Of a stretch of DNA of 40,594 bases, positions 13,214 through 39,757 are shown one piece after another (position 1 is the stretch's first letter; each line of letters opens with the position of its first letter). The translations under genes and the position numbers were made by a program. The DNA is from Escherichia phage SR04. Location of the stretch: sequence record OQ870567.1, one strand, 5' to 3'. The notes under the pieces were generated by a model that was not told the origin of the DNA, did no database searches, and saw only the letters and a list, made by a program, of their open reading frames with translations.

Positions 13214-14526
13214 TTAGTTTGTGAAAGATACGTTGAAGGAACGCACAGGCGAACCGTCATACCCAACAATCACCAGACCTTCCACGCCAGAGGTGGCCTT
13301 GAAGTAGAGACTGTTGGTTCTACGGGAGTAGCTAACACCATCAGGCGTAGTCACCTCAAGCAGCGACCAATCGGTCACGTCTGAAAGCTCAGGGAAGTCA
13401 ACCTTCAAGCTGGTTCCCACCGTAGAACTGTATGTCTCTAAGGTAGGACCCTCTGTAGAGAGGGCCTTAAAGGTCGTTAACCCGCTGACGCCGCTGTGAA
13501 AACCAGTGCGCCTGCCGCTTCTGGACGCAGACCGCCGTGACCCATAGCGTATTTACCAACAATCAGGTCGCCCTGAGCATCGACGTCACGGTCACGTTCC
13601 AGCGCCAAGTCACGCAGCTTCACAGTACCCACAGCAGAACGGTGAGAGAACAGACCCACAACGTTGTCCATAGCAACTTTAACGTCGCCAGTAGCAGTTG
13701 CCGGGAATGCGTGTTTCTGGCCGGAAGCGATAGTGACACCATCAGCACCACGGGTCTCACCAGCACCACCCTGTACCAGATGCGGAACTTCAACAACAAC
13801 GAAGCCCATCACGTTACGGATGTTACCAGTCTCTGGGTCAATCAGCGCAGCATAGTTAGCAGCGTTAGGCATCAGAGCCGCAAGGATTGCAGAGTAGTTG
13901 TCCGGCGTGGTGTAGAAGTAACGGTCGCCAGCAGGAACGTAGTTGGAGGTCAGCTTCGCACGAGCAATGGTCAGTTGACCGATGATTGCTTCGCCCAGTT
14001 TAGCCGGGGTGTCGAGGTCAGCTTTCTTACCAACTTGTAGGACGGACGCAGTACCCAGACCAGCGATGTTCTCGTTGGATGCAGCCGGGAGGTTACACAG
14101 GATCGCCATTTCAGCCAGCACCGCACCATCAGCAGCGATAGCCAGAGCTTCGCCCAACTGGTTGGAATACTCGCCAGCCACGTCGTAGTGGTTCATCGCG
14201 TCTTCAATGTCGAAAATCATCACATCGGCAGTCAGCAGACCATCAATGGTAATCACTTTCTCGGTATGTTTGATACCTTTACGCTTATCGGACAGTCGCT
14301 CACCAGGAGCCAGATACACACCAGATGTGCGACCCATGACCGGGAACTGAGCAGACTTACCGTTCTGAATGGTACGTACAATATGCTTGTCAGCAGTTAC
14401 AGAGCGGCGAGTGAATGCGGTCAGGACTTCACCAGCAAATACCTTCAGGAACAACGCCAGAGCGTCGGAACTGGATTTACCTTTACCTTGGTCTGTACCA
14501 ATTTTCTGACCCGGAACGTTTGCCAT
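13214..14526 (-). CDS. Minor capsid protein 10B, made by -1 ribosomal frameshift at G_GTT_TTC (about 13498-13504); roughly 437 aa
   Basis: The -1 frame is open from the slippery site to the stop at 13214 (track ORF 13214-13420 is in that frame); the heptamer lies 7 codons before the 10A stop, paralleling T7 10A/10B. Confidence 0.55.
13477..14526 (-). CDS. Major capsid protein 10A (349 aa)
   Basis: Sits immediately downstream of the phi10 promoter with a strong RBS; size and position as T7 gp10A. Confidence 0.9.
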   Translation of the reverse strand: MANVPGQKIGTDQGKGKSSSDALALFLKVFAGEVLTAFTRRSVTADKHIVRTIQNGKSAQFPVMGRTSGVYLAPGERLSDKRKGIKHTEKVITIDGLLTADVMIFDIEDAMNHYDVAGEYSNQLGEALAIAADGAVLAEMAILCNLPAASNENIAGLGTASVLQVGKKADLDTPAKLGEAIIGQLTIARAKLTSNYVPAGDRYFYTTPDNYSAILAALMPNAANYAALIDPETGNIRNVMGFVVVEVPHLVQGGAGETRGADGVTIASGQKHAFPATATGDVKVAMDNVVGLFSHRSAVGTVKLRDLALERDRDVDAQGDLIVGKYAMGHGGLRPEAAGALVFTAASAG

Positions 14527-14628
14527 ATGATAATTCTCCTATTCAATTGAAAGATAAAGTTTATTACTTACTGTATGCCCAATCCGTATGGACTGAAGTA
14601 ATAGGGAAACCTTTAGTCTATCTCTTGG

Positions 14629-14651
14629 TCTCCCTATAGTGATAGTTTAGT
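14629..14651 (-). promoter_or_regulatory. Phage RNAP promoter phi10-like (strong late promoter)
   Basis: Minus strand CTAAACTATCACTATAGGGAGACC; the TATAGGGAGACC start region is as at T7 phi10. Confidence 0.8.
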
Positions 14652-22710: not shown

Positions 22711-22730
22711 GGTTAATCCTCCGTTTAGTC

Positions 22731-22770
22731 TAATCATAAAGGCCACTCGATGTGAATGACCTTGAGTCTA
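22731..22770 (-). promoter_or_regulatory. RNase III-type processing hairpin upstream of gene 5
   Basis: Minus strand AAGGUCAUUC-ACAUC-GAGUGGCCUU, a 10-bp stem with G-U pairs; same motif as at 30281 and 39451 and like the T7 R1.1 upper stem. Confidence 0.45.
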
Positions 22771-22773
22771 TAC

Positions 22774-22938
22774 CTAGAAGTCTGTACGCAAGAAGTGATA
22801 CATAAACTTCCGGTTAGCTTTCTTCCATGCCTTAGAGTCGAACCTCTGGTCTCCCAGAATGTTTGACAGGAAGGTTGCTTCGTCACTCCACCATTTGTAC
22901 ATGAACCGATGGTAGCGAGCTTTAAGTTTCTTTAACAC
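22774..22938 (-). CDS. Hypothetical protein between gene 4 and gene 5 (gp4.x position); probable GTG start at 22938 (54 aa)
   Basis: Track ORF 22774-22974 also begins at GTG but has no RBS; GGAGG lies 9 nt before the internal GTG. Confidence 0.35.
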   Translation of the reverse strand: MLKKLKARYHRFMYKWWSDEATFLSNILGDQRFDSKAWKKANRKFMYHFLRTDF

Positions 22939-30066: not shown

Positions 30067-30246
30067 TTATGCTCCTACGAAGTATTTCTCTTGGTTGACC
30101 ATAGAGTCTTTTCCTTCAGCGTTACGGAAAGCACCCTTGACACCACCGCCACGCTTGGTCTTGTTCAGCTTGCGGCCCTTCGGAATATAATCTTCAGTCT
30201 GCTGACGTTCACGGATGCGCTCGAAGTTGATAGTGTTCTGATACAT
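30067..30246 (-). CDS. gp1.1-like small basic protein (59 aa, MYQNTINFERIRERQQTEDYIPKGRKLNKTKRGGGVKGAFRNAEGKDSMVNQEKYFVGA)
   Basis: Hand translation; KGRKLNKTKR is shared with T7 gp1.1; AGGAG 7 nt upstream. Confidence 0.6.
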   Translation of the reverse strand: MYQNTINFERIRERQQTEDYIPKGRKLNKTKRGGGVKGAFRNAEGKDSMVNQEKYFVGA

Positions 30247-30280
30247 GGTGTAGCTCCTGATTGAATGAGTTAGGGTTAAT

Positions 30281-30320
30281 CATGAAGGCCACGACTTTGA
30301 GTCATGACCTTGAGTCTAAT
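30281..30320 (-). promoter_or_regulatory. RNase III-type processing hairpin (R1.1-like)
   Basis: Minus strand AAGGUCAUGAC-UCAAA-GUCGUGGCCUU, an 11-bp stem; same position and stem sequence as T7 R1.1. Confidence 0.5.
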
Positions 30321-30339
30321 CCTATAGTGATAGTTTAGG
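30317..30339 (-). promoter_or_regulatory. Phage RNAP promoter (phi1.1-like)
   Basis: Minus strand CCCTAAACTATCACTATAGGATTAG. Confidence 0.7.
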
Positions 30340-33315: not shown

Positions 33316-33384
33316 ACTTAAAGTCCTTGTTATTAGTCTTTCACTTAAAGTCTCTTTGGTCTTTCACTTGGAGTCTTAGACCTT

Positions 33385-33407
33385 GAGTCCTATAGTGATA
33401 GTTAAGT
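33385..33407 (-). promoter_or_regulatory. Phage RNAP promoter about 75 nt upstream of the RNAP gene
   Basis: Minus strand ACTTAACTATCACTATAGGACTC; full match to the promoter core. Confidence 0.6.
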
Positions 33408-33412
33408 CATAA

Positions 33413-33673
33413 TTACTTGCATATCAGTGGGTTAGCGTGAAGATGACTGAAGTCACCGTGAGTCGTGTGCTTGATGTCTGACCGTTGGTCTATCGCCTTC
33501 CAGCCTGAGACTAAAAGTTTACCATCGTCAGTGATCGGTCGTCCACCAAACGCCAGACTCATCAGTTCGTACTTATTGCCCTCAGCCCTCATGCGGCGAT
33601 GTAAGAACACGTCACGCTCTATTTGCTCTACACGGCTACGGATAGATGGTTTGTTAATGTATACGGTTTTCAT
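33413..33673 (-). CDS. Hypothetical early protein (86 aa), at the position of the T7 gene 0.7 kinase but not a kinase
   Basis: ORF with a TAATG overlap to the upstream gene; no kinase motifs. Confidence 0.5.
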   Translation of the reverse strand: MKTVYINKPSIRSRVEQIERDVFLHRRMRAEGNKYELMSLAFGGRPITDDGKLLVSGWKAIDQRSDIKHTTHGDFSHLHANPLICK

Positions 33674-33870
33674 TACAGTTTGCTCCCAATAGTTGCTATA
33701 TCCCAGACGTTCGCTAAGTTGCGCATGAATCGTCCGTTAGGTTGACGTACAGTCCAGCGGACCATACGTACATAGTTGAATTTATAGACTTTACGCGCTT
33801 TGTTGATGTCTCTCACCAGCACGTAGGCGATAAGTCCATAGCCTATGGCTATCAATAATGAAGATATCAT
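33673..33870 (-). CDS. Small early membrane protein (65 aa, MISSLLIAIGYGLIAYVLV...)
   Basis: N-terminal transmembrane segment; ATGA overlap with the preceding small ORF. Confidence 0.5.
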   Translation of the reverse strand: MISSLLIAIGYGLIAYVLVRDINKARKVYKFNYVRMVRWTVRQPNGRFMRNLANVWDIATIGSKL

Positions 33871-33956
33871 AGTGATTTCCGTTTAATACAATCGTATACC
33901 CCATAACCTATCATCAAGATAACTGGCGCTAGACATACCCAGTAACCGATGTTCAT
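33867..33956 (-). CDS. Small early membrane peptide (29 aa, MNIGYWVCLAPVILMIGYGVYDCIKRKSL)
   Basis: Hand translation; GGAG 6 nt upstream; shares an IGYG motif with the next ORF. Confidence 0.4.
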   Translation of the reverse strand: MNIGYWVCLAPVILMIGYGVYDCIKRKSL

Positions 33957-33984
33957 AATTAACTCCTATCAATTTAAGTGATAA

Positions 33985-34015
33985 TCTTTGAGGCCACCTA
34001 TCAGTCGTGACCTCT
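33985..34015 (-). promoter_or_regulatory. Hairpin GAGGUCAC-loop-GGUGGCCUC, possible RNase III site in the early transcript
   Basis: Related to the AAGGUCA...UGGCCUU hairpin family; intergenic. Confidence 0.3.
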
Positions 34016-34021
34016 CGTCTA

Positions 34022-34171
34022 TCACTCAGTGTGTAAGCTGTCGTGCATACGTTTGCGGCGCTTATAGACCACCTTCAGGAGACGCATAGACTCCTCGTGG
34101 TTTAATCGCCCGGTCTTGACCATAAGCCGGGCGGTGGTGACGTGGTGCTGGCAGAGACCATAAGTTACCAT
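34022..34171 (-). CDS. Small basic early protein (49 aa, MVTYGLCQHHVTTARLMVKTGRLNHEESMRLLKVVYKRRKRMHDSLHTE)
   Basis: Hand translation; TGATG overlap with the ocr stop; GAGGAGG 8 nt upstream. Confidence 0.45.
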   Translation of the reverse strand: MVTYGLCQHHVTTARLMVKTGRLNHEESMRLLKVVYKRRKRMHDSLHTE

Positions 34172-34506
34172 CACTCGCAGTCCTCCTCTTCAGCCTCAAA
34201 CCAGACCACCTCAGAGCTATTAGACACATCGTTATACAATGCCTCATAGATGCGAGCTTGTAGTATACGCGTTATGTCCTTGGTCTCAGGCATCAGCCCA
34301 GAGTCTTCGAACTCATGGTCAATACCATCAGCAGCCATCACCGTGAAAATCTCGTGGTAATAGTGCGGAACATTACCGTCTACGACCTCATGTAGCGCAT
34401 CGCTGTAGTCATCGCCTTCAGCTATTTCGTCGCACTGAATACGCTCATTGAACAGCTCAACGGTTGCAGCCAGCAGCTCATAGTATGCGTTAGCGTTACG
34501 TTCCAT
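34171..34506 (-). CDS. ocr: Ocr-like anti-restriction protein (gp0.3 homologue, DNA mimic, 111 aa)
   Basis: D...A.H...D..VPHYY..IF.VMA..GID.EFEDSGLMP.TKD..RILQARIYE and an acidic C-terminus align with T7 Ocr. Confidence 0.85.
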   Translation of the reverse strand: MERNANAYYELLAATVELFNERIQCDEIAEGDDYSDALHEVVDGNVPHYYHEIFTVMAADGIDHEFEDSGLMPETKDITRILQARIYEALYNDVSNSSEVVWFEAEEEDCE

Positions 34507-34579
34507 AGTTATATCCTCTCAGTTGTTAGTGACTATCAGTCAGGCCGCTATGAGTCTAACGACCTGTAGTTAATCACTC

Positions 34580-34834
34580 TCAGTTAGCGAAATAAGGAGC
34601 TGAGACGCCAGCTGTAGGACTCACGGCTATCTGCGCGTCTATCAGGTAGGTCTCGTTATCTATACGCACAGTATCTACGCTGTAGTTGCTGAACGGCTTG
34701 CTTGAGACCTTGCGCACTACCACACGGTGACGCGCTCCTGTCATCTCTTTAAGCTGAATCCACGCATAACCTTTAGTGTTCACGAATACTTCATTACGAT
34801 TAGTGATTGTGCTTAAGTGTTTCATAGTGTCCAT
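34580..34834 (-). CDS. Hypothetical early protein (84 aa; start possibly the second Met), first gene after the early promoter
   Basis: ORF upstream of ocr, preceded by a repeated hairpin element. Confidence 0.45.
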   Translation of the reverse strand: MDTMKHLSTITNRNEVFVNTKGYAWIQLKEMTGARHRVVVRKVSSKPFSNYSVDTVRIDNETYLIDAQIAVSPTAGVSAPYFAN

Positions 34835-35012
34835 CCGTTAAGTTAGTGACTATCAGTCAGGGCCTTTGAGTCTACATCTGAAGGCCCTGTAGTTAGTCGC
34901 TATCGGCGTACATTAAGAGTTTATCCAGATTGTTAAAGAGCATTCCCTTCAGTCAGAGGACTTCAGGTAGACCATTTCAGTGTTGGTCATCACCGTTGTT
35001 TCGATGTGGTAC

Positions 35013-35042
35013 AGCTTACATCGTATCGTTACATCTTGTCAA
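35013..35042 (-). promoter_or_regulatory. Sigma70 early promoter (A3-like): -35 TTGACA, 18-nt spacer, -10 TAAGCT
   Basis: Minus strand GTAGTTGACAAGATGTAACGATACGATGTAAGCTGTACCACATCG resembles the T7 A3 promoter region. Confidence 0.45.
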
Positions 35043-35399
35043 CTACTTTCTGTCATCTGCCTGTTGTTCGTATGACTGATCAGGCTGTCTACTTAACCGG
35101 GATGATCCGGCGTCTTCACTATCCGGTTGTTGCCGTGTCGTGTTGACGGAAGCTATTAAGCCATAGCCTAGACCTATAGTCAATAGGTAATTTGAAATAA
35201 TATTGATTAAGCTATCGTCGGCCTCATGGTTTAAGAGGATATAGTCTTTGACTAACATGTCTTTGACCTTAAGTCTATAGCTTTGTGTCTATTAACTGTT
35301 GGTATCTGACTGTAGGTGTTGGTGTCTTATGGTTGAGACTGTAGGTTAGTGAGACTGTAGGTTAGTTAGACTGTAGGTGTAGGACGTAATGTTATACTA

Positions 35400-36160: not shown

Positions 36161-36183
36161 CATCCCTATAGTGATAGTTAAGT
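36161..36183 (-). promoter_or_regulatory. Phage RNAP promoter (phiOR-like) between the terminase/HNH genes and gene 19.5
   Basis: Minus strand TTAACTATCACTATAGGGATGGG. Confidence 0.7.
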
Positions 36184-36752: not shown

Positions 36753-38519
36753 TTAGTGGAACGTAACGTATGACCCTAGTCCCAGCTCGTCGTCCGTATC
36801 GTGAGTTACCCGGACCCCATTGTCCCAGAACTCAGTGTGGATGGACTCGAAGCCTTTCCGTGGGTTCTCCATCTGTTCCTCCAGCCACTCCTCAGTGACT
36901 TCACGTTCGCCTTTGTTGGCATCCTTAGCCATCGACTCAACGAAGAACTGTACACCGATAGCCAGCGCATCAAGTCGGTCATCGTGTGCCAAGGCTCCAC
37001 GCTCACGAGAGATACGGGTCATCTGGTAGAAGAGAGAGTAGATAGGGTTACGAACACCATCCTTATCAGAGGCTGACTGGTAGTCTTGGACGATAGCAGC
37101 AGCGTTAACGATAAGTCTGTGAGACCCCATGATAGGCTCCAGAACGTCACAGATGCGGAGTTCTTTCTGACCCTTACTCTTCACTTCAGTTACAGCAGCA
37201 GGATGGATACGGGCAGCTACAGGCTTGAATAGCTCAAGGTACATACCATCGCCGAAGTTACCCTCAATAACGTATTCGTTGACCTTCCACTTACGACCAA
37301 TCTTAGCCAAGGCTTCCAGCGTAGAGTCTTCATAGCCACCGCGCATACCACCAACTTCCATAGCGAAGATGTAGCCGTTGAGCTGGTACAGTACCGCATA
37401 ACCAGTTTCATCCTTACCACGACCACTAGGGTCAATGACCAGAATCTTCTGGGTGTACGAACTGAAGGCAGAACCTACAGTCTGATACGTGTGGTACGAG
37501 TCACCCATGAGTCCAACGTTAGGAACGTCCTCACGCTTGTTCTGAGGGTTCGGCAACCATTGGTAGACCATTGGGCTAGACTCTGGGTCCAAGTCTGCTA
37601 CGATAAGGTCACGGAGCTTCAGAGGGTACTTCTCTGCATCACTCAGGTTCGGGTTAAGCATGAACTGTAGAGCGAAGCCAGCTTTACCATAGGACAGTTC
37701 ACGTTCCTTCAGGTCCGTATCATCGAATCGTACTTCATCGGTAGGACGCCAGTAGAAGGACTCAGGGTCCTCTTCAAGCTCTGCCTGAAGCATAGGAGCC
37801 AGACGGTCGCCGTAAGACTGCCAGTCCTTCTTATCGCGTGGGTAGCGAGCGGGCCAGATGGTAGTGGTATATCCACGACCTTCCAGCTCACGATACAAGG
37901 TCATCTCGTTCTGAGGAGTACCCAGATAGATGATTGTACCTCCCGGCTTCAGGATAGCGTCGAACTCTTTCACAAGCTCTGACAGACGGTCTCGTGCAGC
38001 CTGAGTCGCTGAGTTGTTCGGAACCTCCACGTCATCGGCAATCAGGATGTCAGCACGACTACCAGTCAACTGACCAGTGATACCAACGGACTTAACTGAA
38101 GGTGAGTGGTCTGGCTTGGCTGGTCCAACGTCGAAGCTGATAACCGCATCTCGCTGCCCCTGCTTAGGTTTGAGTTCCTGAAGCTGAGGCATGAGGTCGA
38201 TGATTCGCTTGATGAAGATGGAGTTCGCATCGGCTCGTTCCTTTGAGGCCGACACAATCATGAACTTCAAGTCTGGGTTGTTCCATAGCTTCCAGACCAC
38301 GAAACCACAGGTCAGAAACGACTTGCCAATACCACGGAACGCCTGAAGTATGAATCGGCGATTATCCCCCGCAGCCAGCTTCTTACACATATCTATCTGG
38401 CAGCGGGTTGGAACCGGAAGGCTAAGAGCTTTCCAGAGAACGAAGATGAAGAACACGAAGTCGTCCCTCATCCTTTGGGTCATTTCTGCCTGTCTTTCAA
38501 CAGGTGTTTTCTTAGACAT
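36753..38519 (-). CDS. Terminase large subunit (gp19-like, 588 aa)
   Basis: Size, position and general similarity to T7 gp19. Confidence 0.9.
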
Positions 38520-38952
38520 AGAGTCCCTCCAGCATTAGGTCCCGGACAGAGATAGCCTCCTCTAAAGTAGGACGTGTTGTTCGCATACGGACTCCCTTAC
38601 GCATGACCTCGATAGCGTAGCCATTCTGATGGAACGATATGTTCTTAACTCCAGTCTTTGAGTCAGAATGTCCTGAGGTGTTGCAGGAGTTCTCGCTTGA
38701 AGTAACTAGCCGGAGGTTGTCCAGCCTGTTGTTAGTCCGGCAGCGGTCAATATGGTCAATCTCCATACCTTCTGGTATAGGACCGTGGGTTAGTTCCCAG
38801 ACGACTCTATGGGCCAGCAGGAGTCCATGACGTCGAGTTCCTACCTGATAATACCCGTGGTTTCCCACACACCCAACATCCTTACCAGAACGCATGGACT
38901 TCAGGCCAGACTTACTGGACTCATTATAGATATACGAATCACTGAGCATCAT
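38512..38952 (-). CDS. HNH homing endonuclease 3 (146 aa), inserted between Rz and the large terminase gene
   Basis: HNH motif [34 protein letters not shown]; about 85% nucleotide identity to HNH1 over the core; ATGA overlap with the Rz stop. Confidence 0.8.
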
Positions 38953-39392
38953 TGCTCCTTATCTTGCTGCAAGGCTCTCACAGTGTCCTGAAGGGCCTTA
39001 ATCCACTTGTCTCCTTTCACTCCGATGGCGATAAGACGTTTAGCATCTCGTTCGTCAAGTTCGGCGTAACCATCAATGACGCATCTACCGTCACTTTGCG
39101 TGGTTCCACTCGTTGACTTGACTCGGATGCGCAGCCGCTTATTGTCAGACTGAAGGTCAGCAATAATCCTATCAGTGCTGCCTTCCAGCGAGGACATTTC
39201 GTCCTGAAACCGTTTGGACACTTTGTTGACTTCAGCTTGGACAGCAAGCCTTGTATCTTCCGATGCCTTAAGATTCGAGGTGTATTCCTCATTGACCTTA
39301 GCCTCCCACTTATTGTTAGCGGTGTTGTAGCCACCAGCAAACATCACTGCTGCAAGTAACCACGGAGCCGCTCTCTTTAAAAATTCGAGCAT
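38949..39392 (-). CDS. Rz-like i-spanin (gp18.5-like, 147 aa)
   Basis: MLEFL N-terminal transmembrane segment, EGSTDRII.DL.SDNKRLR.RVK and RDAKR.L align with T7 gp18.5. Confidence 0.85.
   Translation of the reverse strand: MLEFLKRAAPWLLAAVMFAGGYNTANNKWEAKVNEEYTSNLKASEDTRLAVQAEVNKVSKRFQDEMSSLEGSTDRIIADLQSDNKRLRIRVKSTSGTTQSDGRCVIDGYAELDERDAKRLIAIGVKGDKWIKALQDTVRALQQDKEQ
39017..39292 (-). CDS. Rz1-like o-spanin lipoprotein embedded in the +1 frame of Rz (about 91 aa from MRNTPR)
   Basis: PRWK.ALIGL...ISGCASES lipobox and D.SLMV.PNLT.EMLNV match T7 gp18.7. Confidence 0.7.
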   Translation of the reverse strand: MRNTPRILRHRKIQGLLSKLKSTKCPNGFRTKCPRWKAALIGLLLTFSLTISGCASESSQRVEPRKVTVDASLMVTPNLTNEMLNVLSPSE

Positions 39393-39450
39393 AGTTGCCC
39401 TCCCGGTTTATCAGATTTCACGTAGAGTCGCCTCCACTAGTTAGTGTTAA

Positions 39451-39490
39451 CCATAAAGGCCACTACATATAGTAATGACCTTGAGTCTAA
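39451..39490 (-). promoter_or_regulatory. RNase III-type processing hairpin (R18.5-like)
   Basis: Minus strand AAGGUCAUUAC-UAUAU-GUAGUGGCCUU; third copy of the conserved hairpin, upstream of the Rz gene as T7 R18.5. Confidence 0.45.
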
Positions 39491-39493
39491 CAC

Positions 39494-39757
39494 TTATTGA
39501 ATACCATACCCTGTGTCATTATCCTCAGTCGCTGAAAGCACCTTATCGTACTCTGCGTTCAGGGCCTCCATATCAGCCAGCGTCTTCTCGTCCACAGACA
39601 CCTTACTTAACACAAAGTTGTGACGAGCAAGCAGCTTCTCAATGGCGTTGTAGAGCTGAGGTGAACGCTTAGTGTCATCCCGCAGGTCTTGCAGCATGAG
39701 TCGAGCACGTTCAGTATCTAGCATTAAGAGGAACTTCTCTAAGTCCATCTGCGTCAT
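39494..39757 (-). CDS. Terminase small subunit (gp18-like, 87 aa)
   Basis: FL.MLDT, RSPQLYNAI.KLL.RH.F align with T7 gp18. Confidence 0.85.
   Translation of the reverse strand: MTQMDLEKFLLMLDTERARLMLQDLRDDTKRSPQLYNAIEKLLARHNFVLSKVSVDEKTLADMEALNAEYDKVLSATEDNDTGYGIQ

Follow-up and report, generated by a model that had tools for sequence, protein, structure and literature searches.

Six predicted RNase III processing signals of the T7 type in the genome of the K1F-like Escherichia phage SR04

Bacteriophage T7 reportedly has ten RNase III processing sites, with cuts of its RNA at positions that include 890, 1468, 3138, 5887, 6448, 13892, and 36856 (Dunn and Studier, 1983). RNase III sites are not listed in the T7 records NC_001604 and V01146. 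Cellular and phage lambda substrates of the same enzyme, such as the stems of the 30S pre-rRNA, the rnc and pnp leaders, the lambda N leader, and sib, are mostly fully paired, and both of their strands are cut with a 2-nt stagger. As in the T7-type sites, about two helical turns are required, and inhibitory pairs are absent from the recognition boxes (PMC1540722). In the T7-type sites, the internal loop confines the cut to a single bond, and a protective hairpin stays at the 3' end (PMC1540722). Pertzev and Nicholson divided the recognition region of the T7 site R1.1 into a proximal, a middle, and a distal box (PMC1540722). The pairs that control the binding of RNase III to R1.1 include the A:U pair at position 2 of the proximal box and a U.G pair in the distal box; a G/C pair at proximal-box position 2 blocks the binding, and the minimum between the cut and the loop is eleven base pairs (PMC1540722). 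The R1.1 stretch is used as an "RNase III splice site" in reporter vectors (PMC6615863).

The window, which is the whole 40,594-bp stretch of DNA analyzed here, is the complete, circularly permuted genome of a Kayfunavirus (K1F-like, a relative of T7; Autographiviridae, Studiervirinae). Many K1F-like coliphages match a 12-kb stretch of it at 92–95% identity. All long ORFs in the window are on the minus strand, where the gene order is holin 17.5, gene 18, Rz 18.5, an HNH ORF, terminase 19, and then the early region with ocr (gene 0.3, 34171–34506). The early region is followed by the gene for RNA polymerase (gene 1, 33315–30634), genes 1.1 and 1.2, and the ligase gene, and further downstream by the genes for primase/helicase, DNA polymerase (gene 5, 22710–20539), and the structural proteins. 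The HNH endonuclease ORF (38512–38952, minus strand; Pfam HNH_3, E = 1.8e-21) is flanked by Rz (18.5) and the large terminase gene, extends into the end of each, and is probably a homing endonuclease insertion.

The RNA of the coding strand contains six elements of about 50 nt, named here A to F, which are very probably T7-type RNase III processing signals of the polycistronic transcripts of this K1F-like phage. A sequence-only reading of the window had proposed this role for three of them, and their sequence, structure, position, conservation, and strand all fit the T7 type. Repeated hairpins of this kind are a textbook feature of T7-like phages, conserved but ordinary, and the sites described here leave the understanding of phage biology unchanged. 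Their value is for annotation, which gains six predicted mRNA boundaries, each with a cut position given to the nucleotide. The GenBank record of K1F lacks annotations for these sites, and no feature naming such a site was seen in the matches to relatives. In the literature searched, RNase III sites were not mentioned in connection with K1F or Kayfunavirus, and neither cleavage nor transcript ends were found to be described for this phage or another member of the genus.

The motif AAGGTCA-N(8-20)-TGGCCTT, which had been noticed at three intergenic positions, has exactly three matches in the window, at 22739–22763, 30285–30311, and 39456–39482, all on the minus strand and each inside one of the ranges where a hairpin had been placed. 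No match is found in 100 dinucleotide-preserving shuffles. The assignment of the hairpins to genes is also borne out: site A stands before gene 5, site B before the Phage_1_1 ORF, and site C between gp18 and the Rz-like ORF. The flanks reported as conserved are GACUC on the 5' side and (U/C)AUG(A/G)UUA on the 3' side. The 3' flank TGGCCTTTATGATT occurs at the same three places with 0–1 mismatches, and with 3 mismatches at 33983–33996. The latter position belongs to site D, the weaker relative that had been placed at 33985–34015; it has an 8-bp upper stem at 33990–34014 and a score of 60.8 bits with the family model, of which this site is a seed. The stem of 10–11 bp with a 5-nt loop describes sites A (10 bp, 5 nt) and C (11 bp, 5 nt) correctly but not the copy before gene 1.1, which has 12 bp and a 3-nt loop. 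Three points were missing from the sequence-only reading. The RNA in question is that of the minus strand and so reads as the reverse complement of the given letters; the hairpin makes up no more than the upper half of a two-stem element of about 50 nt; and the window has two more members of the family, at 34528–34578 (site F) and 34845–34901 (site E).

The minimum free energy folds of sites A–D and of T7 R1.1, R0.5, R4.7, and R18.5 share a shape of two stems separated by an asymmetric internal loop (5 nt/6 nt), with z-scores from −1.9 to −4.3. RNA folding, which had been suggested as a check, gives the full T7 shape in 90-nt windows around sites A, B, C, and D. The upper stems of sites A, B, C, D, F, and E have 10, 12, 11, 8, 10, and 9 bp, respectively, whereas the lower stems have 7–8 bp, with two mismatches in site A of this genome, one in site B, and one in site E.

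Site A (22726–22775, minus strand; 64.2 bits) is the counterpart of T7 R4.7 and lies directly upstream of gene 5. Its lower stem is formed by AGGUAUA (22769–22775) and UAGACUA (22726–22732), its internal loop is GACUC/UAUGAU, and its upper stem pairs AAGGUCAUUC (22754–22763) with GAGUGGCCUU (22739–22748) around the apical loop ACAUC. The predicted cut follows ...CCUUUAU, between positions 22736 and 22735. Downstream of the site are the Shine-Dalgarno sequence GGAGG and the ATG (22710) of gene 5, the latter 25 nt away. Folding the 50-nt core by itself does not yield the lower stem. At position 22771, the window has an A, which forms an A.G mismatch, and most relatives within the K1F group have a C, which gives a C-G pair (AGGUCUA/UAGACUA); the lower stem of site A is thus weaker here than in the relatives.

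Site B (30272–30323, minus strand; 65.1 bits) is the counterpart of T7 R1.1. The lower stem AGGAUUA/UAACCCU contains an A.C mismatch, and the 12-bp upper stem pairs AAGGUCAUGACU (30300–30311) with AGUCGUGGCCUU (30285–30296) around the loop CAA. The cut is predicted between 30282 and 30281, upstream of the start of gene 1.1 at 30246 (30067–30246, minus strand; Pfam Phage_1_1). Directly next to the lower stem of site B is a promoter of the phage RNA polymerase, ...CUAAACUAUCACUAUAGG (30317–30339, minus strand; start near 30322), the transcripts of which would therefore begin with the element itself, at the 5' arm of the lower stem.

Site C (39443–39494, minus strand; 70.8 bits, z = −4.0) is the counterpart of T7 R18.5 and is positioned between gene 18 (gp18, DNA_Packaging_2; stop at 39494) and the gene 18.5/Rz-like ORF (start at 39392), both on the minus strand. 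Its lower stem AGUGUUA/UAACACU is perfect over 7 bp, its upper stem has 11 bp (39472–39482 with 39456–39466) and a UAUAU loop, and its predicted cut is between 39453 and 39452. Site D (33976–34027, minus strand; z = −4.3) is an early-region site similar to T7 R0.5. The lower stem is GAGUGAUA/UAUCACUU, the 8-bp upper stem GAGGUCAC/GUGGCCUC (34007–34014 with 33990–33997) closes a 9-nt loop, and the cut is predicted between 33987 and 33986, ahead of a small ORF starting at 33956.

Each of the six sites is a G+C-containing hairpin between genes, and they share with intrinsic and T7 Tphi-type terminators the intergenic position and the formation of an RNA hairpin from the coding strand. Nevertheless, it is extremely unlikely that they are terminators or pause sites of the RNA polymerase of the host or the phage. 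The stems all lack a U-tract behind them (the tails are UAUGAUUA, CAUGAUUA, UAUGGUUA, and similar), and the sites differ from terminators by the internal loop and the second stem. A terminator scan made 14 terminator-like calls, of which none coincides with the six sites. Furthermore, one of the sites is immediately downstream of a promoter, and the T7 counterparts are read through.

The T7 sequence at the cut positions given above aligns with the window sites almost base for base. The alignment of the window sites with T7 R0.3, R0.5, R1, R1.1, R1.3, R4.7, and R18.5 has the consensus AGUGnUAnACUCAAGGUCAU...AGUGGCCUUUAUGAUUAnCACU; 94% of its cells are paired, and nine pairs change on both sides. 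The two phages share the architecture of two stems and an internal loop, with the consensus ACUCAAGGUCA...UGGCCUUUAUGAUU, and the gene neighborhoods of the sites, which are 0.3, 1 to 1.1, 4 to 5, and 18 to 18.5. The layout of a promoter followed by a site, seen at site B, is that of T7 phi1.1A/R1.1, and the lower stem GUGAUA/UAUCAC of T7 R0.5 is also present in site D. The reported likeness of the stem to T7 R1.1 is close: R1.1 reads ACUCAAGGUCAUUC-GCAA-GAGUGGCCUUUAU|GAUU and site A reads GACUCAAGGUCAUUC-ACAUC-GAGUGGCCUUUAUGAUU, and the two upper stems are the same in all 10 bp. Synteny agrees with the matching of two of the positions to T7 R1.1 and R18.5, and the third, between genes 4 and 5, which had been left without a name, is the counterpart of R4.7.

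A covariance model was built from 11 seed sequences, the seven T7 sites and window sites A–D, and run without filters on the window. Only six matches have an E value below 1, every one of them on the minus strand; as four of the eleven seeds are from the window, only sites E and F are matches from outside the seed. Site F (34528–34578, minus strand; model match 34586–34516, 46.4 bits, E = 5e-8) is a T7 R1-like variant (CAGGUC...GGCCUG) directly upstream of gene 0.3 (ocr), which is the position of T7 R0.3. It has a 10-bp upper stem (34557–34566 with 34541–34550) and a predicted cut between 34538 and 34537. Site E (34845–34901, minus strand; model match 34909–34833, 29.0 bits, E = 5e-4), also T7 R1-like, is the weakest member and is located upstream of the first early ORF (34580–34834, minus strand). 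Its upper stem CAGGGCCUU/AAGGCCCUG consists of 9 bp, all Watson-Crick, and has a 14-nt apical loop; the predicted cut would produce a 5' end at 34854. Sites E and F have the common flanks ACUAACUA...ACUGAUAGUCACUAAC and the CAGG...CCUG form of T7 R1. An Rfam scan of the whole window gave no match at E ≤ 1; Rfam appears to have no family for the T7 RNase III sites, and there is thus no independent curated model for these sites. Upstream of site E, at about 35007–35045 on the minus strand, a sigma-70-like TTGACA-N17-TAAGCT can be read by eye, which the consensus scan does not list. This promoter is likely where the host polymerase starts an early transcript with sites E, F, and D. In the sigma-70 scan, promoter-like matches were no more common than in shuffles.

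Sites A, B, and C are identical to T7 R1.1 over AAGGUCAU/GUGGCCUU and agree with all the R1.1 recognition rules, the absence of antideterminant pairs included, with the box numbering on natural R1.1 deduced from the residue numbers in PMC1540722. Site D has a G:C pair at position 3 and a C:G pair in the distal box, and sites E and F have a C:G pair at position 3, as does T7 R1. Sites D, E, and F deviate in the same way as the proven T7 sites R0.5 and R1 and may therefore be weaker substrates. The internal loop at the T7 cut (CCUU-UAU|GAU) is UAUGAU in site A, CAUGAU in site B (as in T7 R4.7), and UAUGGU in site C (as in T7 R18.5), whereas it diverges in site D (AAAGAU) and in sites E and F (ACUGAU).

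By analogy with T7, the six elements are predicted to be cleaved, at the bonds named above, and the cleavage to affect how stable the mRNAs are and how they are translated. Each RNA element of about 50 nt would fold into a quasi-continuous helix of about two turns, composed of a lower stem of 7–8 bp, an asymmetric internal loop of 5 nt/6 nt, and an upper stem of 8–12 bp. The host RNase III would bind through the conserved pairs of the upper stem, in the proximal, middle, and distal boxes, and because its target is inside the internal loop, it would cut one strand only. The single cut would fall in the 3' strand of the internal loop, at a distance of 3 nt from the upper stem (in sites A and C, after ...CCUUUAU). 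A 3'-terminal hairpin would remain on the upstream mRNA as a shield against 3' exonucleases, whereas the downstream mRNA would begin about 20–60 nt before the next start codon (gene 5, 1.1, 18.5, 0.3, or one of the early ORFs), with a short 5' leader that includes the ribosome-binding site of the gene. T7 can grow without RNase III (PMC6938266), and thus the processing probably brings only a modest benefit.

The hairpins are stable and stand about 20–60 nt upstream of start codons, and a longer fold of site A pairs the flanks of the element with the Shine-Dalgarno region of gene 5. These properties would also be expected of mRNA hairpins with a protective or regulatory function independent of RNase III, either as stabilizers of 3' ends produced by other cleavage or as modulators of the translation of the next gene. 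However, a role of this kind is very improbable, since it does not explain why the R1.1 recognition pairs and wobbles are nearly invariant while changes are freely tolerated in the lower stem and the distal part of the upper one (PMC1540722), and it leaves the conserved internal loop around the T7 cut (CCUUUAUGAU) without an explanation.

The conservation of the RNase III signals was evaluated in 80 loci centered on the RNA polymerase gene and 80 loci centered on the terminase gene from IMG/VR; the polymerases of the related loci range from 98% down to 58% identity to that of the window. The covariance model matches in these 160 loci are on the coding strand in 179 of 179 and 66 of 66 cases (245/245). 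The nhmmer matches are likewise all on the coding strand (324/324); none lies inside a marker gene, and they are restricted to three intergenic zones: upstream of gene 1, from gene 1 to the ligase gene, and from gene 4 to gene 5. The site between genes 4 and 5 is present in all 69 loci that contain both genes, and relatives also carry sites upstream of gene 18.5. The promoter that abuts the stem at the R1.1 counterpart is found in three lineages of relatives. The covariance model found no R18.5-type site upstream of the terminase gene in the terminase loci L104–L131, which are environmental contigs with 66–76% identity, and it has one match each in L135 and L136, just beyond this set. The family may be limited to a subset of T7-like phages, perhaps those of enterobacterial hosts.

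The pairing, the absence of which in related genomes the sequence-only reading had counted, together with a lack of cleavage, as a refutation, is conserved in them with compensatory changes. The pairing was scored in MAFFT alignments of distinct orthologues, with slid partners and shuffles as controls. In the 38 orthologues of site A, 95.0% of the cells are paired (26–48% with slid partners), and 88 cells are changed on both sides, against 35 in shuffles. The corresponding values are 97.6% (29–48%), with 41 against 12 cells changed on both sides, for the 37 orthologues of site C, and 93.6% (23–51%), with 31 against 13, for the 30 orthologues of site B. At each site, three to seven pairs have changed in both partners, chiefly in the lower stem and the distal upper stem. 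In contrast, the proximal 8 bp (AAGGUCAU/GUGGCCUU), the segment that holds the R1.1 boxes, is almost frozen in the orthologues of sites A, B, and C, including its two U.G wobbles, which are UG in 30 of 30 and 27 of 30 of the R1.1 orthologues. The near-invariance of the R1.1 pairs, with both wobbles, across phages with RNA polymerases only 58–64% identical constitutes a natural mutagenesis experiment, the outcome of which agrees with the in vitro rules for the E. coli enzyme.

The wobbles also bear on the molecule in which the elements act. G.U pairs become A.C mismatches on the other strand, and the sense RNA accordingly folds better than the antisense RNA at five of the six sites, which argues for a function at the level of RNA; the antisense strand folds better than the sense strand at site E. 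A strand-symmetric palindromic DNA repeat, REP-like or protein-binding, was considered and rejected, because the 245 model matches and the 324 nhmmer matches are all on the coding strand and the G.U pairs are conserved. It is likewise highly unlikely that the elements act mainly as DNA, as extruded or protein-bound palindromes, a component of an origin, a linker for recombination, or the target or trigger of a host system. Such action would be compatible with the position of site B, which is where T7 has its primary replication origin, and with the finding that a 79-nt T7 origin fragment with an RNase III site triggers DdmABC (Lamassu) of V. cholerae as DNA, in either orientation (PMC11707656). 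However, besides the strand bias and the conserved wobbles, the elements are found only in intercistronic positions ahead of ribosome-binding sites, and any effect of the DNA would be secondary to the role of the RNA rather than a replacement for it.

It is possible, although rather unlikely, that in addition to their role in RNA the elements of about 50 nt work at the DNA level as junctions for module exchange or as palindromes sensed by defenses of the Lamassu/DdmABC type. Apart from the DdmABC result, this side role is weakly hinted at by the ends of long blastn homology blocks with relatives and by sequence identity between lineages. Such ends are moderately enriched near the element edges at four sites, with 34 at site B, 11 at site D, 11 at site F, and 7 at site E, compared to 6, 3, 3, and 2 expected under a uniform distribution, in counts restricted to HSPs of at least 200 nt, as shorter HSPs between paralogues are confounding. 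The homology-block edges at site B are at 30329–30336, and gene boundaries are equally common break points. Several database matches break exactly at the edges of site A (22776 and 22726–22727), whereas in the IMG/VR set the breaks are not enriched at sites A or C. The elements have stayed alike in genomes that are otherwise diverged and at paralogous positions. The stem-loop of site C, AAGGUCAUUACUAUAUGUAGUGGCCUU (39456–39482), is identical to that of the site between genes 4 and 5 at 13793–13864 of locus L044 and of about 20 similar loci. The polymerase of that lineage is 58% identical to the one in the window, and the shared stem-loop suggests exchange or convergence between paralogous sites across lineages.

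The set of predicted RNase III signals differs from that of T7 in several respects. The model finds six sites in this phage, against the ten reported for T7. It found no counterparts of T7 R1.3 and R1, the latter directly before gene 1, in the window; where the R1.3 counterpart would fall, gene 1.2 overlaps the start of the ligase gene. Counterparts of the atypical, promoter-proximal T7 sites R3.8, R6.5, and R13 were not found in the window by the model either, which cannot judge sites of this kind. Conversely, the extra early ORF of this phage carries its own site, E. Because gene 4.7 is absent, site A abuts gene 5 at about 40 nt, as in the K1F group, whereas the distance from the site to gene 5 is about 450–500 nt in T7, where gene 4.7 lies between them, and in most other lineages. 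Unlike T7, the phage has no homologue of the gp0.7 kinase detectable by tblastn in the whole window, including the early region 33316–35100 (best E = 1.1); a homologue is present in 62 of 82 related loci. In T7, the gp0.7 kinase stimulates RNase III (PMC4858673).

Ten copies of a phage RNA polymerase promoter-like sequence, with the consensus (c/a)cTAAACTATCACTATAGG(g/a), are present in the window, all on the coding strand, and one of them is the promoter that abuts site B. The copies of CACTATAGG start at 36173, 33397, 30329, 28283, 27080 (CACTGTAGG), 18449, 15628, 14641, 10098, and 2821 on the minus strand. A seventh site before gene 1 was considered at the promoter at 33397, which is followed by the 5' half-motif ACUCAAGGUCUAAGAC, and rejected: it has no matching 3' arm and no model match, and only a weak 5-bp stem, GGUCU/AGACC, is formed after the promoter. 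The half-motif in this segment (33318–33397, minus strand) may be what is left of an R1 site after decay. It is followed, up to the ATG of gene 1, by repeats of the motifs AAGUGAAAGAC and GACUUUAAGU.

The 70 nt downstream of each of the ten phage promoters were folded, and a 5' hairpin similar to those of phi10/R3.8 was found only in the leader that begins at 14634. The transcript from this promoter upstream of the capsid gene would start with GGGAGACCAAGAGAUAGACUAAAGGUUUCCC and have an 8-bp 5'-terminal hairpin (14604–14634, minus strand) that resembles those of the T7 phi3.8/R3.8 and phi10 leaders. As judged from its predicted fold, this hairpin could be a further, atypical target of RNase III or a stabilizer of the 5' end.
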